From Enterobacteria phage SfI, in sequence record JX509734: a stretch of DNA of 38,389 nt; one strand, given 5' to 3'. The notes below the pieces were generated by a model. The model worked only from the letters and a program-made list of their open reading frames with translations, made no database searches and was not told where the DNA came from. Below are positions 14,883-35,817 of this stretch, one piece after another. Position numbers and translations under genes: made by a program. Numbering within the stretch: the first letter of the stretch is position 1; every line of letters starts with the position of its first letter.

Positions 14883-15307
14883 TGGAACTGTGGCTGACGG
14901 TGAACGGTAAACGCACCTGCGCCAGCGCACCGCTGGATCCGCTGACCCGCGCCGTGGTGATTTCCCTGTTTACCTGGCGGCGGGCGGAGCCTGATGACAA
15001 CGCCGACGTCCCGATGGGATGGTGGGGGGATACCTGGCCTGCGGTACAGAATGACCGTTACGGCTCCCGACTGTGGCTGCTTCAGCGCAGCAAACTGACC
15101 AATCAGCTGGTGCAGACGGTAAGGGGGTATATCCGCGAATGCCTGCAATGGATGATTGATGACGGCGTGGTGTCCCGTATTGATCTGGATATCCGCCGCA
15201 CCGGGATTAATGAACTGGGTAACAGTATCACTCTCTGGCGTCGTGACGGACCGGTAATGATTTCTTTTGATGATCTGTGGAGTGCGATAACGCATGGCGG
15301 ACAGTGA
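14879..15307 (+). CDS. Baseplate protein (Mu gp46 / gpW-like)
   Basis: 142-aa ORF with 4-nt overlap to the previous gene. Confidence 0.7.
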   Translation: MMELWLTVNGKRTCASAPLDPLTRAVVISLFTWRRAEPDDNADVPMGWWGDTWPAVQNDRYGSRLWLLQRSKLTNQLVQTVRGYIRECLQWMIDDGVVSRIDLDIRRTGINELGNSITLWRRDGPVMISFDDLWSAITHGGQ

Positions 15308-16352
15308 ATTTCAGCGCCCGACGCTGGCAGAAAATATCAGTATGCTCCGTAACGATTTATTCGCCAGGCTGGACGTCAGCGACACGCTCCGGCGCATGGA
15401 TGAAGACGTGCGGGCAAAGGTGTATGCGGCGGCGCTGCATACGGTTTACGGGTACATCGATTATCTGGCAATGAATATGCTGCCTGACCTGTGCGATGAG
15501 TCCTGGCTGGCGCGACATGCTGCGATGAAACGGTGTCCGCGCAAGGGGGCCACGGCTGCCAGCGGGTATATGCGCTGGGAAGGTGTCAGCGATGGCCTGA
15601 AGGTGACTGCCGGGAGCGTGATTCAGCGCGATGACCTGGTTCAGTACACGGCAACTGCCGATGCAACCAGCTCCGGTGGTGTCCTGCGTGTGCCGATCAC
15701 TTGCTCAACTACAGGCGCGGTCGGTAACGCTGACGACGGTACGGCATTAATCCTGGTCACGCCGGTGAATGGTCTGCCGTCTTCCGGTGTGGCTGACACC
15801 CTGACAGGCGGATTTGATACTGAAGAGCTGGAAACGTGGCGCGCCCGCGTCATTGAGCGGTATTACTGGACGCCTCAGGGCGGGGCTGACGGGGACTATG
15901 TCGTCTGGGCTAAAGAAGTGCCAGGCATTACCCGTGCATGGACATACCGCCACTGGATGGGAACGGGAACTGTCGGTGTGATGATTGCCAGCAGTGACCT
16001 GATTAATCCCATTCCGGAAGAATCAACGGAAACGGCAGCAAGACAACATATCGGGCCACTGGCCCCGGTGGCAGGCTCTGATTTGTATGTATTCAGGCCG
16101 GTGGCACATACGGTGGATTTTCATATCCGCGTGACGCCGGACACACCAGAAATACGGGCTGCCATTACCGCGGAGTTGCGTTCGTTCCTGCTGCGTGATG
16201 GTTATCCGCAGGGAGAACTGAAGGTGTCACGTATCAGTGAAGCGATTTCCGGTGCGAACGGGGAATACAGCCATCAGTTGCTTGCACCGGCGGACAATAT
16301 CTCCATTGCAAAAAATGAACTGGCGGTACTGGGGACGATTTCATGGACGTGA
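15294..16352 (+). CDS. Baseplate J-like protein (Mu gp47-like)
   Basis: 352-aa ORF; size and position typical of baseplate J. Confidence 0.78.
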
Positions 16353-16927
16353 CAAACGATGATTACATCCGTCTGTTGTCGGCACTGTTGCCACCCGGTC
16401 CGGCGTGGTCAGCCAGAGATCCGGCGATTGCCGGTGCGGCACCGTCATTAACCCGCGTTCATCAGCGTGCGGATGCCCTGATGCGGGAGCTGGATCCGCG
16501 CACCACCACTGAACTGATAAACCGCTGGGAGCGTCTGTGCGGTCTGCCGGATGAATGTATTCCCGCAGGGACACAGACCCTTCGCCAGCGTCAGCAACGA
16601 CTGGATGCGAAGGTTAACCTGGCGGGCGGCATCAATGAGGATTTTTACCTTGCACAGCTTGCTGCCCTGGGCAGACCAGACGCTACCATCACGCGATACG
16701 ACAAAAGCACGTTCACCTGCTCATCTGCCTGTACTGACGCGGTGAATGCACCGGAATGGCGGTATTACTGGCAGGTCAACATGCCAGTCGCCACCAACAC
16801 CACCTGGATGACATGTGGCGATCCCTGTGATTCCGCGCTGCGCTTCTGGGGGGACACCGTTGTCGAGTGTGTGCTTAACAAACTCTGCCCGTCGCATACC
16901 TATGTGATTTTTAAATATCCGGAGTAA
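16343..16927 (+). CDS. Tail protein, Mu gp48 / YmfQ-like (DUF2313)
   Basis: 194-aa ORF between baseplate J and the tail fibre gene. Confidence 0.65.
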
Positions 16928-16930
16928 TCC

Positions 16931-17581
16931 ATGCATCGTATAGACACGAAAACCGCGCAGAAGGATAAGTTCGGCGCGGGTAAGAACGGTTTTACCCGTG
17001 GTAACCCCCAGACTGGCACGCCTGCCACCGATCTGGATGATGACTACTTTGACATGTTGCAGGAGGAGCTTTGCAGCGTGGTGGAGGCATCCGGTGCCAG
17101 CCTGGAGAAGGGGCGGCACGATCAGTTGCTTACCGCACTTCGCGCGCTGCTGTTAAGCCGCAAGAATCCGTTTGGCGATATCAAATCGGATGGCACGGTG
17201 AAAACGGCTCTCGAAAACCTTGGTTTGGGAGAAGCAGCTAAAAGGAATGTAGGTACAGGGGCGAATCAGATACCTGATATGAGCCTGTTCGCGTCAAGTA
17301 ATACCGCAACGGCTGCTGCGCAAAAATTTCCGTCTGGATTAATTTTACAGTGCGGTCAGTTGAATGGCTCCCCTAATGTATCTTCAACATACGGGATGAG
17401 GTTCCCGATGACATTCTCAAGAGTCCTTGCTGTCACAGTTACATTGAACGTTACTGGCGCGTCAGGGCAGCCGACTGTATCGGCGACAAATGTCCATAAC
17501 ACTGGATTTGATATTACAGTGTCGCCCGGTTCAGGATATGGTTCATCTGCTGATGCGTATTACATTGCAATGGGATATTAA
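16931..17581 (+). CDS. Tail fibre protein (short; AT-rich receptor-binding C-terminus)
   Basis: 216-aa ORF with N-terminus [17 protein letters not shown]; the C-terminal half drops markedly in GC. Confidence 0.72.
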
Positions 17582-17585
17582 CGAA

Positions 17586-17993
17586 ATGTCATATTTTTAT
17601 TCTGCATCGACAAACGGATTTTATTCGACTGAATTTCACGGCACCAATATTCCTGATGATGCAGTGGAAATCTCGGAATCAGAGTGGAAAACACTGATTA
17701 ATTCGCAGAGTGTAACAAAAATGATTACCTGTGGTGAGAATGGTCACCCTGTCATTGTTGACCGTCCTTCTCCAACACCAGAACAATTAGCCTTAATAAA
17801 TAATGAAAAGAAATCTGCACTGATAGCAGAGGCAACGAATGTAATAGCGCCGCTTCAGGATGCGGTTGATTTAGATATGGCAACAGATGATGAAACGAAA
17901 CTGTTACTGGCATGGAAAAAATATCGCGCACTATTGATGCGTGTTGATATAAAAAATACAGAGTGGCCGAAAAAACCAGAGAGCAATCTATAA
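17586..17993 (+). CDS. Tail fibre assembly chaperone (Tfa-like)
   Basis: Track ORF 17490..17993; functional start taken as the ATG at 17586 (MSYFYSASTNGFYS...), 5 nt after the fibre stop. Confidence 0.68.
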   Translation: MSYFYSASTNGFYSTEFHGTNIPDDAVEISESEWKTLINSQSVTKMITCGENGHPVIVDRPSPTPEQLALINNEKKSALIAEATNVIAPLQDAVDLDMATDDETKLLLAWKKYRALLMRVDIKNTEWPKKPESNL

Positions 17994-18226: not shown

Positions 18227-19747
18227 CTATAGGTTAAGTTTTTTGTTAAATACTAATATTACTCTTCCTTCAAAGTTCAAAACTTCGTCAGGCTTACCTA
18301 ATTGTTCTTGAATACCTGCAAGGCAGGATGTCATTTCTTTACATCGTTCAGGTTCGTTAGCTATGGAAACTGCTATAAACTGTCGCTCAGGAGCAGAATT
18401 GAACGCCTCCTTGCTATGCCAAGAAGCCAGTGTCTGTTGTCTCACGCCAGTAAAGTTAATTTTCCCCGAATCAGCATTAAAGAAAACAGGAGTTATCTGT
18501 ATGTCCCCACCAGATAACCAATTTACAGTCATTGACAAATCCCAAAAAGAGCCGTACCCATAATGGAGATTATTTTTTTTTAAAAAATCAATGTATGATT
18601 TAACAATCTTCTCCTGATCGTGTAATGGTGAAGCATTATTTGTGTAAGATTTAATTGAACTGATCGAAAATAAAAATGCGATTAGATAAAATAATATCTT
18701 TGCTTTTGTTGATGTACCGATACAGCACAATATCAGTGCGAAACAGGTAACATTCATAAAGAAACGCATGCTAATATAATCAGGGGATTTATAGCTCAGT
18801 ATGAATGATGAGACAATACCTGCGATAGATAATAATGAAAATAACACAATATAAATACGGTATGTGTTTTTTTTATTGTCCGATAAAACAAACCACGCAG
18901 ATGTAATAATGGCAATGAACCAAATGACAAATGAGGCGTAAGATGTTGCGTTATTGTCGACAACTAATAAATTAAGACTTTTTCCTATTAACAGAATGCA
19001 CCATTTTGCATTTAAAATCATATCATTGAGTGATACAATTTCAAATTGGTGGGGAGGTATGTTAAGTAGATTTTGCAATACATTGGAAAGAGAGATTAAA
19101 CATGCAAATAGTATTAATGCAGTATGCTTAAATAATTTTTTATCCCATACAGAGAATAAAAAGTAAGATATTAATAGTGGAATAAAAAATGCAGCTGTAA
19201 ACCACGGATCGGATACGCTGGAAAATAATGCTGTCAAACTTAAGAGGAGAGTGATAAATATATTTTTATACTGTATGTTGAAAACAGATATAAGCAAGCA
19301 TAAAAAGCCGAAAGCGTTTGTTGAATTATGAGAAAAAGGATGTGATACAAAACCATAAGTGTATGAAAAATATGGTATTAGAGATAGAAGTATAATAGAA
19401 AATAAAGCAGGGGTAAACCCGAATGCCTTACGTAGCGTTAACATCGCTGCTATTACTATAGCAATAGAGAAAACTGCAGTTGATAATCTTAATGCTACTA
19501 AGCCATCATCACCTAACAGCATATAAAATAAAAAGTTAATTGGGTAAACGGTGAAATACCAATTATCCACGGTTGGTTTCCAGTCGTGGATTGATGATAT
19601 ACCATTCTCTAAAATATGCCTCCATACAATTGGGCTGTTAGCAACATCCGGTTCAACTGGAAAGTATCTGGTAGTCAACCAAGTTATTAGGAGTGCTGAT
19701 AAAGCCAATAATATTTTTAATGCTGATTGTTTAATACATATGCTCAT
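18227..19747 (-). CDS. GtrC-family serotype-specific O-antigen glucosyltransferase (polytopic membrane protein)
   Basis: 506-aa very hydrophobic, AT-rich ORF directly downstream of gtrB in the same operon; gtrC genes are the variable, serotype-defining member of gtr cassettes. Confidence 0.72.
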   Translation of the reverse strand: MSICIKQSALKILLALSALLITWLTTRYFPVEPDVANSPIVWRHILENGISSIHDWKPTVDNWYFTVYPINFLFYMLLGDDGLVALRLSTAVFSIAIVIAAMLTLRKAFGFTPALFSIILLSLIPYFSYTYGFVSHPFSHNSTNAFGFLCLLISVFNIQYKNIFITLLLSLTALFSSVSDPWFTAAFFIPLLISYFLFSVWDKKLFKHTALILFACLISLSNVLQNLLNIPPHQFEIVSLNDMILNAKWCILLIGKSLNLLVVDNNATSYASFVIWFIAIITSAWFVLSDNKKNTYRIYIVLFSLLSIAGIVSSFILSYKSPDYISMRFFMNVTCFALILCCIGTSTKAKILFYLIAFLFSISSIKSYTNNASPLHDQEKIVKSYIDFLKKNNLHYGYGSFWDLSMTVNWLSGGDIQITPVFFNADSGKINFTGVRQQTLASWHSKEAFNSAPERQFIAVSIANEPERCKEMTSCLAGIQEQLGKPDEVLNFEGRVILVFNKKLNL

Positions 19748-19749
19748 GG

Positions 19750-20670
19750 TTATTTTCTACCTTTCTTCAAAATATACTTAGGTCTTGATTTTGTTTCTAA
19801 GTAAATTCTACCTATATATTCACCGAGAACACCAATCCCGATCAGTTGCACTCCACCCAAGAAAAGTATTGATACAAGCAGGGAGGGATACCCGCGTACT
19901 GGGTTACCAAAGACAAGGGTGTCTATAATCATCCATGCACCATATAAAAATGAAATGCTTGCAACAAACAAGCCTATATAAGTCCATACGCGAAGAGGAA
20001 AGGTTGAAAAACTTGTGATACCTTCCAGTGCCAGATTCCATAATTTCCAGCCATTAAATTTTGAGATGCCAGCAACACGCTCTGCGCGTACATATTCAAC
20101 GACATCCGTCTGACCACCCACCCAGCTCAGTATGCCTTTCATGAAAAGATTGCGCTCAGGCAACAGTTTAATGTTCTCCACAACCTCACGAGACATGAGT
20201 CGAAAATCTCCGACATTTTCCTCGATCTTTGGGGTGCTTATTTTGTTGTGTAATTTATAGAACCACTCAGCTGTCTTACGTTTCAGTCGTCCATCAGTTG
20301 AGCGGTCTGAACGTTTAGCAAGCACCATGTCAGCACCTGCCTGCCACTTTTCAATAAGATGAGGGATAACCTCAATTGGGTCTTGCAGGTCGACATCAAT
20401 AGGAATTACAGCATCGCCGCTTGCATGGTCTAACCCTGCAAATAAGGCTGGTTCTTTACCAAAGTTGCGTGTAAATGACAGCGGAACAACTAGCGGGTCT
20501 GAAACAGCCAGCGCGTTAATAATTGACTCTGTGGCATCTTTACTTCCGTCATTTATGAATACAATTTCTACTTCATATGGCTTCAACTCTTGGAATTCAC
20601 GTACCGTTTTATAGAAAACAGGTATCGCTTCTTCTTCATTGAAGACAGGAACGACAAGAGATATTTTCAT
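19750..20670 (-). CDS. gtrB: Bactoprenol glucosyltransferase GtrB (GT2 family)
   Basis: 306-aa ORF ([17 protein letters not shown]...) with C-terminal TM segments; coupled to gtrA upstream. Confidence 0.88.
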
Positions 20671-21029
20671 TTCGCATCCCTAAAGACAATGAACTTTGAA
20701 TAGACGAAACCGCACACCAGACTGATGGCGGAGAAGGTGATAAGAGTGACTATTGGAGGAAGTGAGCATTTATCAGCTGCCCAACCAACAATCACACTCA
20801 ATATTCCCATAAATCCCACGTATAACATGTAGCGCATCGCTGTAGTCGATGCTTTGAATGTGAATCTTGCATTCGCGAAGAAGCTAAAGCTCACAGCCAC
20901 TACGAAACCTGTGAAGTTTGCCAGAGCCTGACTGGTATGTGCGGCATAGATACATACACCAAAAACCACCCAGTGTATAAGTGTGTTCAGCACACCTATA
21001 GATGTGTACTTTACAAATAACTTTAACAT
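20667..21029 (-). CDS. gtrA: GtrA flippase for undecaprenyl-phosphate glucose
   Basis: 120-aa four-TM protein; first gene of the minus-strand gtr operon. Confidence 0.85.
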
Positions 21030-21230
21030 TTATTTAATCAATGAGCTCTGAAAGGCATGAAGTCTATCATCCAAGTCTCAATTGATCGATACTTGCTATG
21101 TCTGATGAGACAAAACTGAGACACATAAGGCCTCACAATGGCTTGCAAGGCTTTACATGTTTTGATGTGGTGGGACGTGTGAGCGCAGTGTTGATGGGAT
21201 AATCCTTTGAATTACAAGCGGATTCTTATA

Positions 21231-21276
21231 ATTCGTAATGCGAAGGTCGTAGGTTCGACTCCTATTATCGGCACCA
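21231..21276 (+). other. attP core: 3-prime 46 nt of tRNA-Thr (thrW-type), ending GGCACCA
   Basis: ATTCGTAATGCGAAGGTCGTAGGTTCGACTCCTATTATCGGCACCA matches the anticodon-to-CCA portion of enterobacterial thrW as I remember it; upstream sequence is not tRNA-like; integrase gene lies 15 nt away. Confidence 0.75.
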
Positions 21277-21290
21277 TTAAAATCAATAAG

Positions 21291-22454
21291 TTACACATCA
21301 TTAGTACCTTCCTTATTTTTTGACTGGGACAAATTTGGGACCGATGGGTTCAGGATCGAGTCTATTTGCCGTGCGTGTTCGGTAAGGTGATTAGGTGCAA
21401 GGTGAGCATATCGACGAACCATTTCGATAGACTCCCAGCCTCCCATTTCCTGTAACACTGACAATGGGACTCCGGCTTGAACCAGCCAACTTGCCCAGGT
21501 GTGTCTCAAGTCGTGAAATCTGAAATCATCAATACCAGCCCGTCTCAGCGCCGCTTTCCAGGCTGTGTTTGCGTCATACCGCATCTTCCTTACTGTTGGC
21601 GCTTTCGTTCCGTCTGGTTTGGTACAGCTTTCCTTGTATACAAATACCCAACGGTGATGATTCCCGATTTGTTTTTTCAATACGCGACATGCAGTATCAT
21701 TCAGCGCAACGCCAATTGCGCGGTTTGATTTACTCTCTTCCGGGTTTATCCATGCCACCCGGCGCTGCATGTCTATTTGTTGCCATTCAAGGTTGATGAT
21801 GTTCGAGCGTCTTAAGCCTGTTGCCAGTGCAAATTCAACAACAGACTTTAATGGCTCCGGACATTCATCAATCAGCCTTTGTGCTTCATGAGGCTCCAGC
21901 CAGCGGATACGTTTATTCTTCGGTTGAGGCACTTTAATAATTGGTGCCTTATCCAGCATTTTCCATTCACGCTCTGCGGCTCTTAGCAGGGCCTTTATAA
22001 ATGAAAGATGCGTAGCCTTCGTTGCAACGGACGCTGGTTTTGGCGTGTATTCTGGAACAGGTTTCCCTTTTTTTCTGCATGCTTCTGCCCTGAGTTTCCA
22101 GTTTTCCTCATGACGCCGGTTCGTCATTTTCTGCATTGCTGAATAAATTTTTGATTCAGTAATGTCTTTTAGTTGCATTCCTGCGAAATGTTGAAGCCAG
22201 AATCCGATCCGGCTTTTGTCATCGTCCAGTGATTTTTTATGTGCTTTCTCTTCGAGCCACCTGACACACGCTTCCTCAAACGTCATATCAGGTATTTCAC
22301 CAAGTTTGCTGACCCGCCATGCTTCAGCCTTTAGCTTGTCATGGAGCTCTGTCGCCTGCCTTTTGTCCTTTGTTCCAAGAGACTGTTTAAATCTTTTACC
22401 GTTCGGCAATGTGAAACTGGCGTACCATATTTCACTTCTGCGGAAGAGTGACAT
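21291..22454 (-). CDS. int: Tyrosine integrase (P22 Int-like)
   Basis: 387-aa ORF ([47 protein letters not shown]...) with C-terminal [11 protein letters not shown]...RYAHL catalytic signature; adjacent to attP. Confidence 0.9.
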
Positions 22455-22681
22455 TTTCTTTCCTCTGTTATGCCATCACCCGCGCTCACCTTGATAGTAT
22501 GCAGCGGAGACTGAAGCGCCGCAATGCAGGCTTGTCGCGTTGTGAGGTAAGGAGATTTTGGTTTAGTGGGGTCTTTGCGTGTTGCCTGTAGGCGGCCTGT
22601 TCGTATCCAGTTGGTGGCGGTTGGTCTGGATATCTTAAGAAACTGACAGGCCTCATCGAGTGTGAGGCTGTATGTTTCCAT
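22331..22681 (-). CDS. xis: Excisionase (P22 Xis-like)
   Basis: Track ORF 22331..22711; GAGG RBS favours the ATG at 22681 ([33 protein letters not shown]...); overlaps the int 5-prime end. Confidence 0.78.
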
Positions 22682-22931
22682 GGTTACCTCTGCTTTTTGA
22701 ACGCATGTCACGTAACTTCTTAATGTGTTCTGCCGTTTCGATCTCTTCTGCTATCCGATCTGCATCAGCTTTATTCACAGGTTCAAAGTCATGATTAAAG
22801 CGGAACATGCTGGCGATACATGTTCTGCCTTTTCGGATGTAGTGAACTTTGTTGTGGGTAGAACGCAGGATTTTGCAGGGAGTGCCGTGGTGGTCGACGT
22901 ACCAGGTGTTAGGCAAAATGATTCTGAACAT
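22653..22931 (-). CDS. Hypothetical protein
   Basis: 92-aa ORF with GAGGTG RBS; lies in the pL-distal accessory region. Confidence 0.5.
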   Translation of the reverse strand: MFRIILPNTWYVDHHGTPCKILRSTHNKVHYIRKGRTCIASMFRFNHDFEPVNKADADRIAEEIETAEHIKKLRDMRSKSRGNHGNIQPHTR

Positions 22932-22978
22932 TTTTACACCTCAGTTGGACGATGTTGAAATTTGCTGCCTTGAGGCCA

Positions 22979-23197
22979 TCACAGTCCCCATTGTTTGTTC
23001 TTAAGTTCGATCTCCTCCTGGCAACTTGCACAAGTCCGACAACCCTGAACAGCCAGGCGTCTTCGCTCATCTATCGGATCGCCACACTCACAACAATGAG
23101 TTGCGGATACAGTCTGGTAGTTCAGACGACGCATTTTTATTGCTGTATTGCGCTGTAATTCTTCGATTTCTGATGCTGAATCAATGATGTCTGCCAT
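22979..23197 (-). CDS. TraR/DksA-family C4 zinc-finger protein
   Basis: 72-aa ORF with CxxC-x17-CxxC (CECG...CRTC) and the size typical of phage TraR homologues. Confidence 0.68.
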   Translation of the reverse strand: MADIIDSASEIEELQRNTAIKMRRLNYQTVSATHCCECGDPIDERRRLAVQGCRTCASCQEEIELKNKQWGL

Positions 23198-23295
23198 CTT
23201 TCATTAATCCCTGAATTGTTGGTTAATACGCTTGAGGGTGAATGCGAATAATAAAAAAGGAGCCTGTAGCTCCCTGATGATTTTGCTTTTCATGT

Positions 23296-23511
23296 TCACC
23301 GTTCCTTAAAGACGCCGTTTAACATACCGATTGCCAGACTTAAGTGAGTCGGTGTGAATCCCATCAGCGTTACCGTTTCGCGGTGCTTCTTTAGTACGCT
23401 ACGGCAAATGTCATTGACGTTTTTATCCGGAAACTGCTGTCTGGCTTTTTTGATTTCATAATTAGCCTGACGGGCAATGCTGCGAAGGGCGTTATTATGT
23501 TCTATTGTCAT
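23296..23511 (-). CDS. Hypothetical protein (71 aa)
   Basis: Track ORF 23296..23649; RBS GAGG placed 9 nt upstream of the ATG at 23511, which sits 8 nt downstream of the preceding gene stop. Confidence 0.45.
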   Translation of the reverse strand: MTIEHNNALRSIARQANYEIKKARQQFPDKNVNDICRSVLKKHRETVTLMGFTPTHLSLAIGMLNGVFKER

Positions 23512-23518
23512 ATTGGCC

Positions 23519-24271
23519 TCACACTTCGAATGCCAGTTGAGGGGTAAAGACGTCCCGTTCAGCGTTGTAATTAAGTGAACTGGCACTGTTGAATGATTCA
23601 ATGCGTTCCACAAGAACTTGCGTACGGGTTTCTTTACTTGCGGGAGCATATGGCGAACCTACCCAGGATTTGTCGATGCCTATATTTCTTGCGACGTTCG
23701 TGCTGTCTGCAGACGAAAGCGGTACATGAGTAAAAATGTCTTTATTTAACATCCGTAACCCATGAATCTTGGTGATTGGGTAGCCGTACTGATCTACAAC
23801 ATGACGTATAAGATCGCGTAGTTTAGCCCGACACGCTCTCGGTCGTTTTGCATCGTATTCCCCCATCGAGCCGATGCAGACGCGGGGAAACTCATGGCAC
23901 AGACGAATAAATCGCTCATCTGGTTCGTTCATGTGCCACACCGGAGCACCAATAAATTTACCGTGAGGCCATGCCGCAATCAGGGCGTCATTCTCTTCAC
24001 TGGTTCCGCCGATAACATCCGGGATAACCGCGAATGAGAAACGAGGGTGATTGCCCCAGCGTTCAACAAATCTGTAATATTCATTCCAGTCTACGGCCTT
24101 GTTTTTTGTCCAGAATGTGAATGCACCATTATCAAGAGCAAATGATTGGGTGACTTCGGAAGCCAGATCAATCTGAGCTGGATTAGCAAAACTGATGAAT
24201 GCGTGTCTGCCTTTCCAGGCTTTCAACGCACAGGTATCGGGAGTTATTGGACCACCGTGAAAATGAATCAT
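23519..24271 (-). CDS. TGT-fold protein, candidate DpdA-like DNA-guanine transglycosylase (7-deazaguanine DNA modification)
   Basis: 250-aa ORF with GGGAGAG RBS. By eye it carries LDNGAF (compare DSGGFQ of tRNA-guanine transglycosylase), IGSMG (compare LMGVG) and SADSTNVARNIG (compare DCVMPTRNARNG) in the right order, and lacks the C-terminal zinc site, as phage DpdA proteins do. The gene is solid; the functional call is inference. Confidence 0.45.
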   Translation of the reverse strand: MIHFHGGPITPDTCALKAWKGRHAFISFANPAQIDLASEVTQSFALDNGAFTFWTKNKAVDWNEYYRFVERWGNHPRFSFAVIPDVIGGTSEENDALIAAWPHGKFIGAPVWHMNEPDERFIRLCHEFPRVCIGSMGEYDAKRPRACRAKLRDLIRHVVDQYGYPITKIHGLRMLNKDIFTHVPLSSADSTNVARNIGIDKSWVGSPYAPASKETRTQVLVERIESFNSASSLNYNAERDVFTPQLAFEV

Positions 24272-24432
24272 ACACTCTCCCGTTTATTATTTATCTCCTC
24301 AGCCAGCCGCTGGGCTTTCAGCGGATTTCGGATAACAGAAAGGCCGGGAAATACCCAGCCTCGCTTTGTAACGGAGTAGACGAAAGTGATCGCGCCTACC
24401 CGGATATTATCGTGAGGATGCTTCATCGCCAT
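24268..24432 (-). CDS. Lambda orf60a-like small protein
   Basis: 54-aa ORF ([54 protein letters not shown]) overlapping the exo stop and ATGA-coupled to the downstream gene; under 60 aa so absent from the track. Confidence 0.5.
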
Positions 24433-25103
24433 TGCTCCCCAAATACAAAACCAATTTCAGCCAGTGCCTCGTCCATTTTTTCGATGAACTCCGGCACCAT
24501 CTCGTCAAAACTCGCCATGTAATTTTCATCCCGCTCAACCACGACATAATGCAGGCCTTCACGCTTCATTCGTGGGTCATAGTTGGCAAAGTACCAGGCA
24601 TCTTTTCGCGTTACCCACATGCTGTACTGCACCTGGGCCATGTAAGCCGACTTTATGGCCTCGAAACCACCGAGCCGGAATTTCATGAAATCCCGGGAGG
24701 TAAACGGGCATTTCAGTTCAAGGCCGTTGCCGTCACTGCATAAACCATCGGGAGAGCAGGCGGTGCGCATATTTTCGTCGCGATAGATGATCGGGGATTC
24801 AGTAACATTCACGCCGGAAGTGAATTCAAACAGGGTTCTGGCGTCGTTCTCGTACTGTTTTCCCCAGGCCAGCGCCTTAGCATTAACTTCCGGAGCCACA
24901 CCGGTGCAAACCTCAGCCAGCAGGGTGTGGAAGTAGGACATTTTCATGTCAGGCCACTTCTTTCCTGAGCGGGGCTTTGCTATCACGTTGTGAACTTCTG
25001 AAGCGGTGATGACGCCGAGCCGTAATTTGTGCCATGCATCATCCCCCTGTTCGACAGCTCTCACGTCGATCCCGGTACGCTGCAGGATAATGTCCGGTGT
25101 CAT
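24423..25103 (-). CDS. exo: Lambda-type 5-prime to 3-prime exonuclease Exo (Red-alpha)
   Basis: 226-aa ORF ([53 protein letters not shown]...) matching lambda Exo as remembered; coupled to bet. Confidence 0.9.
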
Positions 25104-25885
25104 GCTGCCACCTTCTGCTCAGTGGCTTTCTGTTTCAGGAATCCAAGAGCTTTCACTGCTTCGGCCTGTGTCAGTTCTGACGATGCGCGAATGTCGCGGC
25201 GAAATATCTGGGAACAGAGCGGCAATAAGTCGTCATCCCATGTTTTATCCAGGGCGATCAGCAGAGTGTTAATCTCCTGCATGGTTTCATCGTTAACCGG
25301 AGTGATGTCGCGTTCCGGCTGACGTTCTGCAGTGTATGCAGTATTTTCGACAATGCGCTCGGCTTCATCCTTGTCATAGATACCAGCAAATCCGAAGGCC
25401 AGACGGGCACACTGAATCATGGCTTTATGCCGTAACATCCGTTTGGGATGCGACTGCCACGGTCCGGTGATTTCTCTGCCTTCGCGGGTTTTGAATGGTT
25501 CGCGGCGGCATTCATCCATCCACTCGGTAACGCAGATCGGATGATTACGGTCCTTGCGGTAAATCCGGCATGTGCAGGATTCATTGTCCTGCTCAAAGTC
25601 CATGCCATCAAACTGCTGGTTTTCATTGATGATACGGGACCAGCCATCAACGCCCACCACCGGAACGATGCCGTTCTGCTTGTCAGGGAAGGCGTAAATT
25701 TCTTTCGTCCACGGATTAAGGCCGTACTGGTTGGCGACGATCAACAATGCGATGAACTGCGCATCGCTGGCATCACCTTTAAATGCCGTCTGGCGAAGAG
25801 TGGTGATCAGTTCCTGTGGGTCGACAGAATCCATGCCGACACGTTCAGCCAGCTTCCCAGCCAGCGTTGCGAGTGCTGTACTCAT
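25100..25885 (-). CDS. bet: Bet single-strand annealing protein (Red-beta)
   Basis: 261-aa ORF ([66 protein letters not shown]...) matching lambda Bet as remembered. Confidence 0.9.
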
Positions 25886-25890
25886 CCGTT

Positions 25891-26307
25891 TTATACCTCT
25901 GAATCAATATCAACCTGGTGGTGAGCAATGGTTTCAACCATGTACCGGATGTGTTCTGCCATGCGCTCCTGAAACTCAACATCGTCATCAAACGCACGGG
26001 TAATGGCTTTTTTGATGGCCCCGTGGCGTTGCAAATGATCGAAGCATAGCGATTCAAACAGGTGCTGGGGCAGGCCTTTTTCCATGTCGTCTGCCAGTTC
26101 TGCCTCTTTCTCTTCACGGGCGATCTGCTGGTAGTGACGCGCCCAGCTCTGAGCCTCAAGACGATCCTGAATGTAATAAGCGTTCATGGCTGAACTCCTG
26201 AAATAGCTGTGAAAATATCGCCCGCGAAATGCCGGGCTGATTAGGAAAACAGGAAAGGGGGTTAGTGAATGCTTTTGCTTGATCTCAGTTTCAGTATTAA
26301 TATCCAT
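25891..26307 (-). CDS. gam: Gam, RecBCD inhibitor
   Basis: 138-aa ORF ([61 protein letters not shown]...) matching lambda Gam as remembered. Confidence 0.9.
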
Positions 26308-26405
26308 TTTTTATAAGCGTCGACGGCCTCACGAAACATCTTTTCATCGCCAATAAAAGTGGCGATAGTGAATTTAGTCTGGATAGCCATAAGTGTTTGA
26401 TCCAT
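26262..26405 (-). CDS. kil: Kil (host cell-division inhibitor)
   Basis: 47-aa reading frame [47 protein letters not shown] inside track ORF 26262..26531, with GGAG RBS; overlaps the gam start as in lambda. Confidence 0.72.
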
Positions 26406-26538
26406 TTTTTGGGACTCCTGGCTGATTAAGTATGTCGATAAGGCGTTTCCATCCGTCACGTAATTTACGGGTGATTCGTTCAAGTAAAGATTCGGAAGGG
26501 CAGCCAGCAACAGGCCACCCTGCAATGGCATATTGCAT
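26374..26538 (-). CDS. cIII: cIII, FtsH (HflB) protease inhibitor
   Basis: 54-aa frame read by hand ([54 protein letters not shown]), overlapping the kil start; under 60 aa so absent from the track. Confidence 0.8.
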   Translation of the reverse strand: MQYAIAGWPVAGCPSESLLERITRKLRDGWKRLIDILNQPGVPKNGSNTYGYPD

Positions 26539-26610
26539 GGTGTGCTCCTTATTTATACATAACGAAAAACGCCTCGAGTGAAGCGTTATTGGTATGCGGT
26601 AACGCCGCGC

Positions 26611-26979
26611 TCAGGCGGCTTTGATAGTCATATCATCTGAATCAAATATTCCTGATGTATCGATATCGGTAATTCTTATTCCTTCGCTACCATCCATTGG
26701 AGGCCATCCTTCCTGACCATTTCCATCATTCCAGTCGAACTCACACACAACACCATATGCATTTAAGTCGCTTGAAATTGCTATAAGCAGAGCATGTTGC
26801 GCCAGCATGATTAATACAGCATTTAATACAGAACCGTGTTTATTGAGTCGGTATTCAGAGTCTGACCAGAAATTATTAATCTGGTGAAGTTTTTCCTCTG
26901 TCATTACGTCATGGTCGATTTCAATTTCTATTGATGCTTTCCAGTCGTAATCAATGATGTATTTTTTGATGTTTGACAT
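26611..26979 (-). CDS. ea10: Ea10-like protein
   Basis: 122-aa ORF with GAGGA RBS, at the lambda ea10 position between cIII and ral; identity from memory of size and context. Confidence 0.6.
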   Translation of the reverse strand: MSNIKKYIIDYDWKASIEIEIDHDVMTEEKLHQINNFWSDSEYRLNKHGSVLNAVLIMLAQHALLIAISSDLNAYGVVCEFDWNDGNGQEGWPPMDGSEGIRITDIDTSGIFDSDDMTIKAA

Positions 26980-26995
26980 CTATTCATATCCTCAC

Positions 26996-27024
26996 AGAAA
27001 AAAATCGCCCTCACACTGGAGGGC
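26996..27024 (-). terminator. Rho-independent terminator (tL2-like) in the pL operon
   Basis: On the minus strand GCCCTC-CAGTGT-GAGGGC hairpin followed by GATTTTTTTCT, between ral and ea10. Confidence 0.5.
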
Positions 27025-27181
27025 AAAGAAGATTTCCAATAATCAGAACAAGTCGGCTCCTGTTTAGTTACGAGCGACATTGCTCCGTGTATTCACTCGT
27101 TGGAATGAATACACAGTGCAGTGTTTATTCTGTTATTTATGCCAAAAATAAAGGCCACTATCAGGCAGCTTTGTTGTTCTG

Positions 27182-27361
27182 TTAACCAAGTTCTCTGGCA
27201 ATCATTGCCGTCGTTCGTATTGCCCATTTATCGACATATTTCCCATCTTCCATTACAGGAAACATTTCTTCAGGCTTAACCATGCATTCCGATTGCAGCT
27301 TGCATCCATTGCATCGCTTGAATTGTCCACACCATTGATTTTTATCAATAGTCGTAGTCAT
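27182..27361 (-). CDS. ral: Ral-like restriction alleviation protein
   Basis: 59-aa frame read by hand (MTTTIDKNQWCGQFKRCNGCKLQSECMVKPEEMFPVMEDGKYVDKWAIRTTAMIARELG); lambda Ral as I remember it is a few residues longer at the C-terminus. Confidence 0.62.
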   Translation of the reverse strand: MTTTIDKNQWCGQFKRCNGCKLQSECMVKPEEMFPVMEDGKYVDKWAIRTTAMIARELG

Positions 27362-27431
27362 ACGGATAGTCCTGGTATTGTTCCATCACATCCTGAGGAT
27401 GCTCTTCGAACTCTTCAAATTCTTCTTCCAT
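27345..27431 (-). CDS. Small acidic peptide (28 aa), lambda orf28-like
   Basis: MEEEFEEFEEHPQDVMEQYQDYPYDYDY with GAGGTG RBS; overlaps the ral start. Confidence 0.3.
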   Translation of the reverse strand: MEEEFEEFEEHPQDVMEQYQDYPYDYDY

Positions 27432-27631
27432 ATATCACCTCAAATAAGTTGTTTGCTGCGAAAGTAAATACGCTTAAGTTACCTGTTATTTATTCCACCA
27501 AGTTCCGTATCTATCTATCCAGTTACACCAATCATCGACACTCCATTTTGTTGTGTCGCATTTTGGCAACTGGCATGAATATCTACCTTCTTTGTAAAGT
27601 CGGCGTTTGACTTTCTTGAGCATGGCTCACC

Positions 27632-27964
27632 TCAATCGTAATAAGCTGGAATTGATTTTCCGCGTTGCTTCTGGCGGCCTGAGCAAGTCACACCCATTTC
27701 ACAGCGTGGCTTGCTGTACCATGTGCGCTGATTCTTGCGCTCAATACGTTGCAGGTTGCTTTCAATCTGTTCGTGGTATTCAGCCAGCACCGTAAGGTCT
27801 ATCGGATTCAGTGCGCTTTCTACTCGTGATTTCGGTTTGCGATTCAGCGAGAGAATAGGGCAGTTAACTGGTTTTGCGCTTACCCCAACCAACAGGGGAT
27901 TTGCTGCTTTCCATTGAGCCTGTTTCTCTGCGCGACGTTCGCGGCGGCGTGCTTGTGCATCCAT
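27632..27964 (-). CDS. N: N antiterminator (lambda-type, Arg-rich motif)
   Basis: Track ORF 27632..28054; true start at MDAQARRRERRAEKQAQWKAANPLLVGVSAKPVN... (ATG at 27964, preceded by AGGAGAATCCAG); the C-terminal about 25 aa differ from lambda N as remembered. Confidence 0.82.
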   Translation of the reverse strand: MDAQARRRERRAEKQAQWKAANPLLVGVSAKPVNCPILSLNRKPKSRVESALNPIDLTVLAEYHEQIESNLQRIERKNQRTWYSKPRCEMGVTCSGRQKQRGKSIPAYYD

Positions 27965-28074
27965 CTGGATTCTCCTGTCAGTTAGCTTTGAGTAACGCGC
28001 CGTGATGCTTATCTCCACGGTTGCTGTCTTGCAGCTGCATTTCGCGCTACTCAAAGCCTTCTGCTTTGAATGCT

Positions 28075-28105
28075 GCCCTTCTTCAGGGCTAAATTTTTAA
28101 GAGCC
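28075..28105 (-). promoter_or_regulatory. nutL site (boxA-like GCTCTTA plus boxB GCCCTGAAGAAGGGC)
   Basis: On the minus strand GCTCTTAAAAATTTAGCCCTGAAGAAGGGC; boxB is a perfect 5-bp stem with GAAGA loop; boxA differs at one position from the lambda CGCTCTTA. Confidence 0.7.
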
Positions 28106-28145
28106 TCACCTTCAATGGTGGTCAGTGCGTCCTGCTGATGTGCTC

Positions 28146-28208
28146 AGTATCACCGCTAGTGGTATTTATGTCAACACCGCCAGAGATAATTTATCACCGC
28201 AGATGGTT
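28146..28208 (-). promoter_or_regulatory. pL promoter with oL1-oL2-oL3 repressor operators
   Basis: On the minus strand TTGACA (28169-28174) and GATACT (28146-28151) with 17-bp spacing; three 17-bp operators at 28148-28164, 28172-28188 and 28192-28208 with the TATCACCGC half-site. Confidence 0.8.
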
Positions 28209-28353
28209 ATCTGTATGTTTTTTATATGAATTTATTTTTTGCAGGGGGCATTGTTTGGTAGGTGAGAGATCTGAATTGCTATGTTTAGTGAGTTGTATCT
28301 ATTTATTTTTCAATAAATACAATTGGTTATGTGTTTTGGGGGCGATCGTGAGG

Positions 28354-28380
28354 CAAAGAAAACCCGGCGCTGAGGCCGGG
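28354..28380 (-). terminator. Terminator downstream of rexB (timm-like)
   Basis: CCCGGC/GCCGGG stem with 6-nt loop immediately after the rexB stop, followed on the minus strand by TTTTCTTTG. Confidence 0.45.
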
Positions 28381-28815
28381 TTATTCTTGTTCTCTGGTCA
28401 AATTATATAGTTGGAAAACAAGGATGCATATATGAATGAACGATGCAGAGGCAATGCCGATGGCGATAGTGGGTATCATGTAGCCGCTTATGCTGGAAAG
28501 AAGCAATAACCCGCAGAAAAACAAAGCTCCAAGCTCAACAAAACTAAGGGCATAGACAATAACTACCGATGTCATATACCCATACTCTCTAATCTTGGCC
28601 AGTCGGCGCGTTCTGCTTCCGATTAGAAACGTCAAGGCAGCAATCAGGATTGCAATCATGGTTCCTGCATATGATGACAATGTCGCCCCAAGACCATCTC
28701 TATGAGCTGAAAAAGAAACACCAGGAATGTAGTGGCGGAAAAGGAGATAGCAAATGCTTACGATAACGTAAGGAATTATTACTATGTAAACACCAGGCAT
28801 GATTCTGTTCCGCAT
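28381..28815 (-). CDS. rexB: RexB, membrane channel of the Rex abortive-infection/exclusion system
   Basis: 144-aa polytopic membrane ORF immediately downstream of rexA in the cI operon; AT-rich. Confidence 0.85.
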   Translation of the reverse strand: MRNRIMPGVYIVIIPYVIVSICYLLFRHYIPGVSFSAHRDGLGATLSSYAGTMIAILIAALTFLIGSRTRRLAKIREYGYMTSVVIVYALSFVELGALFFCGLLLLSSISGYMIPTIAIGIASASFIHICILVFQLYNLTREQE

Positions 28816-28830
28816 AATTACTCCTGATAA

Positions 28831-29670
28831 TTAATCCTTAACTTTGCCCACCTGCCTTTTAAAACATTCCAGTATATCACTTTTCATTCTTGCGTAGCAA
28901 TATGCCATCTCTTCAGCTATCTCAGCATTGGTGACCTTGTTTAGAGGCGCTGAGAGATGGCCTTTTTCTGATAGATAATGTTCTGTTAAAATATCTCCGG
29001 CCTCATCTTTTGCCCGCAGGCTAATGTCTGAAAATTGAGGTGACGGGTTAAAAATAATATCCTTGGCAACCTTTTTTATATCCCTTTTAAATTTTGGCTT
29101 AATGACTATATCCAATGAGTCAAAAAGCTCCCCTTCAATATCTGTTGCCCCTAAGACCTTTAATATATCGCCAAATACAGGTAGCTTGGCTTCTACCTTC
29201 ACCGTTGTTCGGCCGATGAAATGCATATGCATAACATCGTCTTTGGTGGTTCCCCTCATCAGTGGCTCTATCTGAACGCGCTCTCCACTGCTTAATGACA
29301 TTCCTTTCCCGATTAAAAAATCTGTCAGATCGGATGTGGTCGGCCCGAAAACAGTTCTGGCAAAACCAATGGTGTCGCCTTCAACAAACAAAAAAGATGG
29401 GAATCCCAATGATTCGTCATCTGCGAGGCTGTTCTTAATATCTTCAACTGAAGCTTTAGAGCGATTTATCTTCTGAACCAGACTCTTGTCATTTGTTTTG
29501 GTAAAGAGAAAAGTTTTTCCATCGATTTTATGAATATACAAATAATTGGAGCCAACCTGCAGGTGATGATTATCAGCCAGCAGAGAATTAAGGAAAACAG
29601 ACAGGTTTATTGAGCGCTTATCTTTCCCTTTATTTTTGCTGCGGTAAGTCGCATAAAAACCATTCTTCAT
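28831..29670 (-). CDS. rexA: RexA, sensor of the Rex exclusion system
   Basis: 279-aa ORF (MKNGFYATYRSKNKGKDKRSINLSVFLNSLLADNHHLQVG...) downstream of cI; matches lambda RexA in size and sequence as remembered. Confidence 0.85.
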   Translation of the reverse strand: MKNGFYATYRSKNKGKDKRSINLSVFLNSLLADNHHLQVGSNYLYIHKIDGKTFLFTKTNDKSLVQKINRSKASVEDIKNSLADDESLGFPSFLFVEGDTIGFARTVFGPTTSDLTDFLIGKGMSLSSGERVQIEPLMRGTTKDDVMHMHFIGRTTVKVEAKLPVFGDILKVLGATDIEGELFDSLDIVIKPKFKRDIKKVAKDIIFNPSPQFSDISLRAKDEAGDILTEHYLSEKGHLSAPLNKVTNAEIAEEMAYCYARMKSDILECFKRQVGKVKD

Positions 29671-29782
29671 AATTCAATCCATTTACTATGTTATGTTCTG
29701 AGGGGAGTGAAAATTCCCCTAATTCGATGAAGATTCTTGCTCAATTGTTATCAGCTATGCGCCGACCAGAACACCTTGCCGA

Positions 29783-30499
<717 letters not shown>

Positions 30500-30506
30500 T
30501 TAAATC

Positions 30507-30572
30507 TATCACCGCAAGGGATAAATATCTAACACCGTGCGTGTTGACTATTTTACCTCTGGCGGTGATAAT
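30507..30572. promoter_or_regulatory. oR3-oR2-oR1 operators with divergent pRM / pR promoters
   Basis: TATCACCGCAAGGGATA (30507-30523), TAACACCGTGCGTGTTG (30530-30546), TACCTCTGGCGGTGATA (30554-30570); pR -35 TTGACT 30544-30549 and -10 GATAAT 30567-30572; cro RBS AGGAGG follows. Confidence 0.88.
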
Positions 30573-30587
30573 GGTTGCATGTACTAA

Positions 30588-30797
<210 letters not shown>

Positions 30798-30804
30798 ATA
30801 ACCC

Positions 30805-30836
30805 CGCTCTTACACATTCCAGCCCTGAAAAAGGGC
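30805..30836 (+). promoter_or_regulatory. nutR site (boxA CGCTCTTA plus boxB GCCCTGAAAAAGGGC)
   Basis: CGCTCTTACACATTCCAGCCCTGAAAAAGGGC between cro and cII. Confidence 0.75.
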
Positions 30837-30915
30837 ATCAAATTAAACCACACCTATGGTGTATGCATTTATTTGCATACATTCAATCAATTGTTATCTA
30901 AGGAAATACTTACAT

Positions 30916-31209
30916 ATGGTTCGTGCAAACAAACGCAACGAGGCTCTACGAATCGAGAGTGCGTTGCTTAACAAAATCGCAATGCTTGGAACTGAGAAGA
31001 CAGCGGAAGCTGTGGGCGTTGATAAGTCGCAGATCAGCAGGTGGAAGAGGGACTGGATTCCAAAGTTCTCAATGCTGCTTGCTGTTCTTGAATGGGGGGT
31101 CGTTGACGACGACATGGCTCGATTGGCGCGACAAGTTGCTGCGATTCTCACCAATAAAAAACGCCCGGCGGCAACCGAGCGTTCTGAACAAATCCAGATG
31201 GAGTTCTGA
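30916..31209 (+). CDS. cII: cII transcriptional activator
   Basis: Track ORF 30856..31209; true start at MVRANKRNEALRIESALLNKIAMLGTEKTAEAVGVDKSQISRWKRDWIPKF... (97 aa). Confidence 0.9.
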   Translation: MVRANKRNEALRIESALLNKIAMLGTEKTAEAVGVDKSQISRWKRDWIPKFSMLLAVLEWGVVDDDMARLARQVAAILTNKKRPAATERSEQIQMEF

Positions 31210-31241
31210 GGTCATTACTGGATCTATCAACAGGAGTCATT

Positions 31242-32141
31242 ATGACAAATACAGCAAAAATACTCAACTTCGGCAGAGGTAACTTTGCCGGACAGGAGCG
31301 TAATGTGGCAGATCTCGATGATGGTTACGCCAGACTATCAAATATGCTGCTTGAGGCTTATTCGGGCGCAGATCTGACCAAGCGACAGTTTAAAGTGCTG
31401 CTTGCCATTCTGCGTAAAACCTATGGGTGGAATAAACCAATGGACAGAATCACCGATTCTCAACTTAGCGAGATTACAAAGTTACCCGTCAAACGGTGCA
31501 ATGAAGCCAAGTTAGAACTCGTCAGAATGAATATTATCAAGCAGCAAGGCGGCATGTTTGGACCAAATAAAAACATCTCAGAATGGTGCATCCCTCAAAA
31601 CGAGGGAAAATCCCCTAAAACGAGGGATAAAACATCCCTCAAATTGGGGGATTGCTATCCCTCAAAACAGGGGGACACAAAAGACACTATTACAAAAGAA
31701 AAAAGAAAAGATTATTCGTCCGAGAATTCTGGCGAATCCTCTGACCAGCCAGAAAACGATCTTTCTGTGGTTAAACCGGATGCTGCAATTCAGAGCGGCA
31801 GCAAGTGGGGGACAGCAGAAGACCTGACCGCCGCAGAGTGGATGTTTGACATGGTGAAGACCATCGCGCCATCAGCCAGAAAACCGAATTTTGCAGGGTG
31901 GGCTAACGATATCCGCCTGATGCGTGAACGTGACGGACGTAACCACCGCGACATGTGCGTGCTGTTCCGCTGGGCATGCCAGGACAACTTCTGGTCCGGT
32001 AACGTGCTGAGTCCGGCCAAACTCCGCGACAAGTGGACCCAGCTCGAAATCAACCGAAACAAGCAACAGGCTGGCGTGACAGCCGGCAAACCAAAACTCG
32101 ACCTGACGAACACTGACTGGATTTACGGGGTGGATTTATGA
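31242..32141 (+). CDS. O: Replication initiator O
   Basis: 299-aa ORF (MTNTAKILNFGRGNFAGQERNVADLDDGYARLSNMLLEAYSG...) containing the ori iterons; coupled to P. Confidence 0.9.
   Translation: MTNTAKILNFGRGNFAGQERNVADLDDGYARLSNMLLEAYSGADLTKRQFKVLLAILRKTYGWNKPMDRITDSQLSEITKLPVKRCNEAKLELVRMNIIKQQGGMFGPNKNISEWCIPQNEGKSPKTRDKTSLKLGDCYPSKQGDTKDTITKEKRKDYSSENSGESSDQPENDLSVVKPDAAIQSGSKWGTAEDLTAAEWMFDMVKTIAPSARKPNFAGWANDIRLMRERDGRNHRDMCVLFRWACQDNFWSGNVLSPAKLRDKWTQLEINRNKQQAGVTAGKPKLDLTNTDWIYGVDL
31591..31675 (+). repeat. Replication origin iterons (four O-binding repeats) with adjacent AT-rich region
   Basis: Four spaced repeats of the TCCCTCAAAACGAGGGA type at 31591, 31611, 31635 and 31658, followed by an A-rich stretch at 31676-31720, inside the O gene. 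Confidence 0.78.
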
Positions 32142-32839: not shown

Positions 32840-33126
32840 CGGGCAAAGAGGCAATTATTCATTACCTGGGGACGCATAAGAGCTTCTGTGCACAGGACGT
32901 TGCCGCGGTAACAGGCGCAACCGTAACCAGCATAAATCAGGCTGCGGCTAAAATGGCGCGGGCAGGAATCCTGGTCGTTGATGGTAAGGTCTGGCGAACG
33001 GTGTATTACCGGTTCGCTACCAGAGAAGAATGGGAAGGAAAGGTGAGCACGAATCTGATTTTTAAGGAGTGTCGCCAGAGTGCCGCGATGAAACGGGTAT
33101 TGGCGGTATATGGAGTTAAAAGATGA
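32836..33126 (+). CDS. ren: Ren (Rex exclusion escape)
   Basis: 96-aa ORF coupled to P; MTGKEAIIHYLGTHKSFCAQDVAAVTGATVTSINQAAAKMARAGILVVDGK... Confidence 0.78.
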   Translation: MTGKEAIIHYLGTHKSFCAQDVAAVTGATVTSINQAAAKMARAGILVVDGKVWRTVYYRFATREEWEGKVSTNLIFKECRQSAAMKRVLAVYGVKR

Positions 33127-33151
33127 CCATCTACATTACTGAGCTAATAAC

Positions 33152-33183
33152 AGGCCTGCTGGTAATCGCAGGCCTTTTTATTT
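33152..33183 (+). terminator. Rho-independent terminator (tR2-like)
   Basis: AGGCCTGC / GCAGGCCT 8-bp stem with 8-nt loop followed by TTTTTATTT, between ren and ninB. Confidence 0.6.
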
Positions 33184-33199
33184 GGGGGAGAGGGAAGTC

Positions 33200-34164: not shown

Positions 34165-34343
34165 GACGACAGCGACGAAGTATCACCGACATCATCTGCG
34201 AAAACTGCAAATACCTTCCAACGAAGCGCTCCAGAAATAAACGCAAGCCAATCCCAAAAGAATCTGACGTAAAAACCTTCAACTACACGGCTCACCTGTG
34301 GGATATCCGGTGGCTTAGAGAACGTGCGAGGAAAACAAGGTGA
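34161..34343 (+). CDS. ninE: NinE-like protein
   Basis: 60-aa frame ([60 protein letters not shown]) inside track ORF 34071..34343; coupled to the methyltransferase stop. Confidence 0.6.
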
Positions 34344-35812: not shown

Positions 35813-35817
35813 AATAT

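Follow-up and report, generated by a model that had tools for sequence, protein, structure and literature searches.

The interval between the O-antigen glucosylation genes and the integrase gene of Enterobacteria phage SfI contains 46 nt that look like the end of a host tRNA gene. It raises the questions of whether these 46 nt are the site at which the phage recombines with its host, which host gene is the target, and whether the DNA around them is a phage genome or a piece of an integrated prophage. A first-pass annotation, made from the letters of the sequence, had read the segment as an intact attP beside a P22-type integrase. The window, by which we mean the whole stretch of DNA that was analysed, comprises the 38,389 nt of record JX509734. 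The best explanation, which we hold with near certainty, is that positions 21231-21276 are the attP common core of the serotype-converting Shigella flexneri phage SfI and that the window is its complete genome. This attP, its target thrW and its junctions are already known and were published in 2013 together with the genome, and earlier work on P22, SfV, SfII, and SfX had already described the same core, which makes the reading correct but ordinary. The comparative additions made here (arm geometry, thrW/argU modularity, and an 18-nt extension of the homology) refine the anatomy of the site and leave the picture unchanged.

The attP core and its tRNA origin

The segment ATTCGTAATGCGAAGGTCGTAGGTTCGACTCCTATTATCGGCACCA occupies positions 21231-21276 on the plus strand and is present as a single copy in the window even when up to three mismatches are allowed, with 0 copies expected from 100 shuffles. 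It is identical at 46 of 46 positions to the 3' part (tRNA positions 31-76) of the tRNA-Thr(cgt) gene adjoining proA in E. coli. In E. coli and Shigella, this gene beside proA is thrW, a tRNA-Thr with the anticodon CGT (CGU). The parts copied exactly into the attP common core are the last base of the anticodon stem (position 31), the anticodon loop, the variable loop, the T arm, the 3' strand of the acceptor stem, and CCA. Alignment with host thrW loci thus bears out the earlier proposal that the segment reproduces the 3' 46 nt of a thrW-type tRNA-Thr from the anticodon region to CCA, and the host target is indeed a tRNA-Thr gene, namely thrW(CGU) beside proA.

The 30 nt immediately upstream of the core (21201-21230) match the 5' half of thrW at only 6 of 30 positions. 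ARAGORN called no tRNA at 21231-21276, its calls in the window being limited to a tRNA-Asn and tRNA-Thr(UGU) pair at 35738-35893, and the best Rfam match in the core region at permissive E-values was a sub-threshold tRNA-Sec at noise level (14.3 bits, E 8.9). The window therefore carries a 3' fragment and not a tRNA gene. The 5' half of thrW is truly absent from the window at attP, as the first-pass annotation had stated, and no full tRNA emerged on closer examination of the upstream sequence.

The likeness between attP and attB in E. coli continues for 18 nt beyond CCA. In a four-way alignment, this extension (TTAAAATCAATAAGTTAC, 21277-21294, plus strand) matches the empty attB at 17 of 18 positions, while the SfII version of the stretch matches attB in full; SfII differs from the window by one substitution right after CCA, reading TTTAAATC where the window reads TTAAAATC. 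The blastn overlap of the two arms of the YZ22MPE54 prophage, described below, likewise ends at 21294. Because similarity continues for 18 nt after CCA, the 46-nt core is the block shared without change by phages and hosts and not the limit of homology. The full attP extends roughly from 21106 to 21341.

Gene surroundings and the form of the window

The core lies between two phage modules. On its P-arm side are the baseplate wedge, tail-fibre, and tail-fibre-assembly genes (15294-17993, plus strand), identified by PHROGs and by the annotation of a 99.98%-identical prophage, followed by the gtrI-gtrB-gtrA O-antigen glucosylation operon (18227-21029, minus strand), which is supported by Pfam GtrA and GT2 matches, by the SfII, SfIV, and SfV annotations, and by the published description (PMC3636060). 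The gtr(type) gene of this operon, gtrI, encodes 506 aa on the minus strand, and gtrB is the GT2 member. The operon stays at the attR end of the prophage. On the other side, int (21291-22454, minus strand) encodes a 387-aa P22-type tyrosine integrase that matches Pfam Phage_integrase (PF00589) at 2.8e-48 over profile positions 1-171 of 172, with an HxxR motif at residues 314-317 found by scan and a C-terminal RRYAH visible in the translation. Tail, gtr, attP, and int are thus contiguous, as had been noted at first pass. The assignment of the integrase to the P22 type is upheld by 90% amino acid identity over 387 aa to the Int of phage L, whose own record gives it as 98% identical to P22 Int.

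The int start is overlapped by xis (22331-22681, minus strand), which encodes a 116-aa excisionase recognised by PHROG (1.4e-51) and HTH_17 and is near-identical to phage L Xis from Met11 of the open reading frame onward. The int stop codon lies 15 nt from CCA, so that int is transcribed toward the core and is convergent with the tRNA fragment. A sigma-70 scan of the minus strand over 21030-21230 returned no gtr promoter; the only match of the scan, a weak one on the plus strand inside the tRNA fragment, was regarded as chance and rejected.

The start of the window (1-60) lies shortly before the small-terminase gene and coincides with that of the SfII, SfIV, and SfV records, and its last 10 nt are the cos sequence TGCCCGCCCC (38380-38389, plus strand). 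With the 10-nt cos at its end and its start at the small terminase, the window is a whole, artificially linearised phage genome. The published SfI genome (JX509734) is 38,389 bp long, with a 10-nt cos TGCCCGCCCC, an attP core that is exactly the 46-mer ATTCGTAATGCGAAGGTCGTAGGTTCGACTCCTATTATCGGCACCA, and tRNA-Asn and tRNA-Thr(UGU) genes starting at 35,738 and 35,818 (PMC3636060). The tRNA starts agree with those given by ARAGORN. These tandem phage-borne genes, tRNA-Asn(GUU) and tRNA-Thr(UGU) at 35738-35893 on the plus strand, are unrelated to the thrW fragment and are described in the SfI paper. The deposited sequence was composed of the strain 019 prophage and an attP amplicon and was linearised artificially from small terminase to cos (PMC3636060). 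The record hence represents the phage form and is not a direct read of virion DNA over its whole length.

This composition, partly from a prophage assembly (PMC3636060), lends some initial plausibility to a different account, which would make the segment a prophage junction (attL or attR) with host DNA on one side and the window an excerpt of an integrated prophage; most of the 46-mers among the IMG/VR matches listed are also of junction types. Both flanks of the segment, however, are phage DNA, the left one consisting of gtrA and the P arm and the right one of int, and neither proA nor paoD is found beside it. The window runs from the terminase end to cos, the true integrated form found in E. 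coli YZ22MPE54 is a permutation of it, the attP junction was itself sequenced from a PCR product (PMC3636060), and the SfII, SfIV, and SfV records show the same contiguity. We consider the prophage-excerpt account so improbable that it can be set aside. The terminase start, the cos end, and the permutation seen in YZ22MPE54 instead agree with the earlier view that the window is a phage form without host flanks. The attP site identifies the window as a whole temperate-phage genome, permuted as in the unintegrated form.

Empty site, junctions, and integrated relatives

Each of the sites expected of an attP that recombines with thrW was found in available genomes. An empty attB is present in E. 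coli CUVET25-1275, in which proB, proA, and thrW are followed directly by a LysR-family remnant and paoD, with no insert. An attL is represented by E. coli O157:H7 Z1835, where proA and a complete tRNA-Thr(cgt) are followed by a convergent integrase, and where identity to the window begins exactly at 21231 and runs on through int. An attR is found in E. coli S43, which combines the P arm of the window, the core with one base missing, and the paoD-side host flank; identity to the window extends from the P arm to 21276 and over 10 more nt in S43.

The whole integrated arrangement is seen in E. coli YZ22MPE54, whose prophage has the order paoD, 46-mer, gtrA-gtrB-gtrC (506 aa), tail through terminase, lysis, Q, replication, xis-int, 46-mer, and proA. 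Its two 46-mers are exact direct repeats 38,186 bp apart. The copy at the int end sits within a complete thrW, yielding a full tRNA-Thr, while the gtr end consists of the P arm and the 3' fragment. Window positions 1-21294 map to one arm of this prophage at 99.9-99.98% identity and positions 21231-26268 to the other at 99.0%, from which it follows that the prophage is a circular permutation of the window opened within 21231-21294. YZ22MPE54 is a pork isolate, and its prophage agrees with the window at 99.9-99.98% identity in the structural genes, in gtrB-gtrA, and in the 506-aa gtr(type) gene. Its early and regulatory region is mosaic, with window positions 26269-31674 and 33115-37963 having no match there.

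These junctions also bear on the proposal that the segment takes no part in integration and is a decayed phage-borne tRNA gene, comparable to the tRNA-Asn and tRNA-Thr(UGU) pair at 35.7 kb. In favour of it are the tRNA genes found elsewhere in the phage and the term 'tRNA-like fragment' used in the phage L annotation. Decay is not expected to leave 46 of 46 positions identical to thrW with a sharp boundary at the anticodon loop, though, and the thrW fragment is unrelated to the phage tRNA-Thr(UGU). Each prophage end, moreover, carries the 46-mer in direct orientation, and just one of the two copies is joined to the host 5' half. The probability that we attach to the decay proposal is negligible.

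The attP core reading is further carried by the published experiments, in which attP (the gtrA-int interval), the attB of the recipient, and attL and attR of the lysogen were PCR-amplified and sequenced, with the authors concluding that SfI integrates into thrW next to proA (PMC3636060). Together with the genomes described here, these four published sites show that attP recombines with thrW and that the 46-mer is duplicated at both prophage ends (PMC3636060). At the int-proximal junction (attL), a complete tRNA-Thr(CGU) is composed of the host 5' half and the phage-borne 3' part, and the gtr-proximal junction (attR) consists of the P arm, the 3' fragment, and then the host flank. The suggestion made at first pass that attP regenerates the tRNA on integration is therefore confirmed by the complete tRNA-Thr(cgt) at the int-side junction and the fragment at the other, and the attL/attR junctions it had named as a check are reproduced in silico (Z1835, S43, and YZ22MPE54) as well as by the published PCR sequencing (PMC3636060).

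Several further loci were seen. The thrW gene of E. coli H2 (locus 1471-1560) was set aside as a reference for the empty attB, because 15 nt (CTCACACAACAAAAT) are inserted close to its 3' end, right before the terminal CCA, and an IS3 lies nearby, about 240 nt downstream. ARAGORN and the record annotation give shortened tRNAs ending at or before the insertion (1471-1544 and 1471-1543). This locus may be a damaged attB. Three chromosomes, from E. coli ES9, S. flexneri SFBU1023, and E. coli ECMA0423, contain attP-like junctions composed of a variant left flank ending in TTGGTGCTACAG, the core, and a convergent int-type gene. The int-type gene is 98.7% identical to SfI Int in SFBU1023 and ECMA0423, and the left flank in ES9 follows gtrA. 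An alternative integration site was considered for the gtrA-core-int junction of ES9 and rejected, since the same variant P arm recurs in S. flexneri and E. coli ECMA0423; for this reason the three junctions most likely derive from tandem elements at thrW. The circular phi458 record, the end of which was examined for an attR copy, begins at the core.

Probable position of strand exchange

Counted in tRNA positions, the identity between attP and attB has its 5' limit at 31-32 in SfI and at 32 in DLP12, a relative specific for argU. Strand exchange most likely takes place within the anticodon loop TTCGTAA (21232-21238, plus strand), the predicted 7-bp overlap. This placement is based on the start of identity at the loop in both thrW and argU relatives and from the inverted repeat that the anticodon stem provides in attB. 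It agrees with the 21-mer CTTATAATTCGTAATGCGAAG (21225-21245, plus strand), which is identical in the window and in SfII, and which the SfII record AF021347 annotates as 'attachment site attP; similar to P22'. The SfII 21-mer, CTTATAA-TTCGTAA-TGCGAAG, is centred on the anticodon loop and can be divided into a putative core-type site C, the overlap, and a putative core-type site C' (7+7+7).

The same attP could also be used with strand exchange further 3' in the identity block, for example within the 23-mer ATGCGAAGGTCGTAGGTTCGACT. This 23-mer lies just 3' of the anticodon and is labelled as the attP site in records of the P22 lineage, and attP and attB are alike over 46-64 nt, over which sequence alone allows any position of exchange. 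We regard a more 3' exchange as possible, though less likely. In thrW- and argU-specific relatives alike, identity sets in where the anticodon loop starts, which is expected if the loop is the overlap and is otherwise unexplained. The attB loop is also flanked by the inverted repeat of the anticodon stem, which suits two core-type sites, and the SfII 21-mer annotation is centred on the loop. Among the tRNA sublocation classes that Williams is said to have set out in 2002, the P22-type group reportedly falls into the anticodon-loop class.

Candidate arm-type and IHF sites

The plus strand of 21106-21341 carries the motif TGRGAC at 21106, 21117, 21171, 21325, and 21336. Five copies on one strand in 391 nt compare with about 0.15 expected (Poisson P of about 6e-7). 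Three of them are located in the P arm. The copies at 21106 and 21117 form the candidate arm-type Int sites P1 and P2 (TGAGACAAAACTGAGAC, 21106-21122, plus strand), a block that DLP12 has as well, and the third lies in the block TGGGACGTGTGAGCGCAG (21171-21188, plus strand), which contains the candidate arm-type site P3 and is invariant in SfI, phage L, Cronobacter phage ENT47670, and the attR of DLP12. The remaining two, the candidate sites P'1 and P'2 of the P' arm (TGGGACAAATTTGGGAC, 21325-21341, plus strand), are found in the last codons of int.

Counted from the centre of the anticodon, the motifs are positioned at -129, -118, -64, +90, and +101 in SfI, SfII, and Cronobacter phage ENT47670. 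Phage L and SPN9CC have TGRGAC at -129, -64, +90, and +101, and the -118 copy of phage L reads CGGGAC. These offsets are kept although the arms are otherwise only about 65-80% identical.

Exact matches to the IHF consensus WATCAANNNNTTR occur only twice in the whole window. One of them, AATCAATAAGTTA at 21281-21293 (plus strand), overlaps the int stop codon and is the candidate H' site. The consensus stands at +46 in all five of SfI, SfII, phage L, SPN9CC, and ENT47670. An IHF-like site with one mismatch, ATTCAAAGGATTA (21200-21212, minus strand), is a weak candidate for an H site in the P arm, about one such match per kb being expected. From motif enrichment and conservation, we infer that these positions are arm-type and IHF sites, and they are treated as candidates throughout.

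P-arm hairpin and possible additional roles

A stable hairpin followed by a U-rich tract occupies 21121-21160 of the P arm on the minus strand and is a putative terminator of the leftward int transcript. The minus-strand RNA has a dG of -24 kcal/mol and a z-score of -4.3, with a terminator-like match. The hairpin is annotated as a putative rho-independent terminator on the same strand in SfII KC736978 and on the opposite (plus) strand in phage L. The SfI hairpin pairs better on the minus strand, by means of G-U pairs, and lies downstream of int across the core.

That attP carries more than recombination signals is conceivable but quite doubtful, and three such roles can be named. Integration would separate the hairpin at 21121-21160 from int, of which it could be a terminator or a sib-like retroregulator. 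Binding of Int, Xis, or IHF to the P arm upstream of gtrA at attR could couple the expression of O-antigen conversion to the recombination state. The IHF consensus, being common to the P' arm and the 3' flank of host thrW, could make attB itself a putative IHF-binding site.

Distribution of the site

Among 5,426 complete E. coli genomes, 564 matched a query of gtrB, gtrA, P arm, and core over at least 80% of its length. In species-representative genomes, at least 120 matches to the final 28 nt of thrW were listed, 110 of them with the exact 46-mer. Among the 120 matches listed, 91 were full genes from many Enterobacterales genera, and 26 were 3' fragments only, as expected of att repeats. The flanks following the CCA of thrW fell into several recurrent classes across Enterobacterales among the 120 matches listed, which indicates that several unrelated integrase families target thrW. 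One thrW locus was seen with a different, co-oriented integrase. The IHF consensus was placed exactly at +4 after CCA, as in the window, in 22 flanks among the 120 matches listed, and some thrW flanks with the IHF consensus had no P22-type int nearby.

In viral contigs of IMG/VR, at least 122 exact 46-mers were listed, with 56 of attL type, about 15 of attR type, and about 10 attP-like. Among these IMG/VR matches listed, the contiguous P-core-P' is the less commonly sampled, unintegrated form.

Proposed mechanism and significance

By homology to lambda and P22, SfI Int would act as a heterobivalent tyrosine integrase whose N-terminal domain binds arm-type sites, the candidates for which are the five TGRGAC motifs. 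Int would also bind the core-type sites flanking the 7-bp overlap, most likely TTCGTAA, and bridge arm and core sites. IHF would bend the arms, with the exact consensus (21281-21293) and the weaker candidate (21200-21212) as putative sites. Two ordered strand exchanges through a Holliday junction would then insert the circularised genome, and excision would use Xis (22331-22681). Identity would be needed for recombination in the overlap only, and the remaining ~39 nt would replace the displaced 3' part of the tRNA. In this proposed reading, the extra ~39 nt of identity would be present because they keep thrW functional in the lysogen.

From the site one can predict where lysogens carry the prophage (proA-thrW), a help in the typing of serotype-converting phages. 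The site is also a clean example of a tRNA-targeting phage that preserves the tRNA gene used for its insertion.

Comparison with known systems

The lambda attP (POP') has a long P arm, a short P' arm on the int side, IHF sites, and Xis. Its integrase is a heterobivalent tyrosine integrase with int directed toward attP, and its 15-bp core is not in a tRNA gene. SfI shares this general design with lambda, its IHF sites being candidates. The two differ in the number and arrangement of arm sites, and their arm-type motifs and Xis proteins show no sequence similarity.

The attP of P22 lies in a tRNA-like fragment that rebuilds thrW upon integration (PMC8022706). The module of the Salmonella phages P22 and L, with attB in thrW, has the same 46-nt core, an Int that is 90% identical, a Xis of 116 aa, and the IHF consensus at +46. 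It differs from SfI in its arms, which are about 65-80% identical, in the CGGGAC of phage L at -118, and in virion type, SfI being contractile-tailed (PMC3636060). A single GATC (21084) lies upstream of gtrA (21030-21105) in SfI. The P22-type phage L is longer there by about 87 nt, which contain four GATC sites that are described as regulatory Dam sites in the paper on phage L. SfI and SfII appear to be without the Dam-site module of phage L.

Published SfI itself (JX509734, Sun et al. 2013, PMC3636060) has the gene order gtrI-gtrB-gtrA-attP-int-xis, as in the window, and no difference from the window is detectable at the published values for length, tRNA starts, cos, and core. SfII, SfIV, SfV, and SfX have identical core and arm-motif offsets, and identity across gtrA-attP-int reaches 98.7-98.9%, with SfIV, SfII, and SfV as the best matches. 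They differ from SfI in their gtr(type) genes.

The cryptic prophage DLP12 of E. coli K-12 has been said to share the SfI attP core (PMC3636060). Its P arm is 96-97.5% identical to window positions 21109-21188 in the genomes listed, and its right end lies between ompT and envY. Matches of 80 nt to the P arm, without an annotated feature, recur across the E. coli genomes listed. After the P arm, DLP12 continues with a 3' segment of argU that begins at the first base of the anticodon loop, where SfI has thrW instead. At the left end, argU is followed by an IHF-like site AATTCAATCAGTTA, which is not an exact consensus, by paired TGGGAC motifs, and then by intD. The paired TGGGAC of the DLP12 attL stands at about the same distance from CCA as the pair in the P' arm of SfI, and IntD is 74% identical to SfI Int. 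As the DLP12 junctions carry argU and only the arms are shared, the published remark on a common core (PMC3636060) is not borne out. SfI and DLP12 thus represent one integrase lineage with the same arm architecture and different tRNA-derived cores, thrW and argU, both of which start at the anticodon loop.
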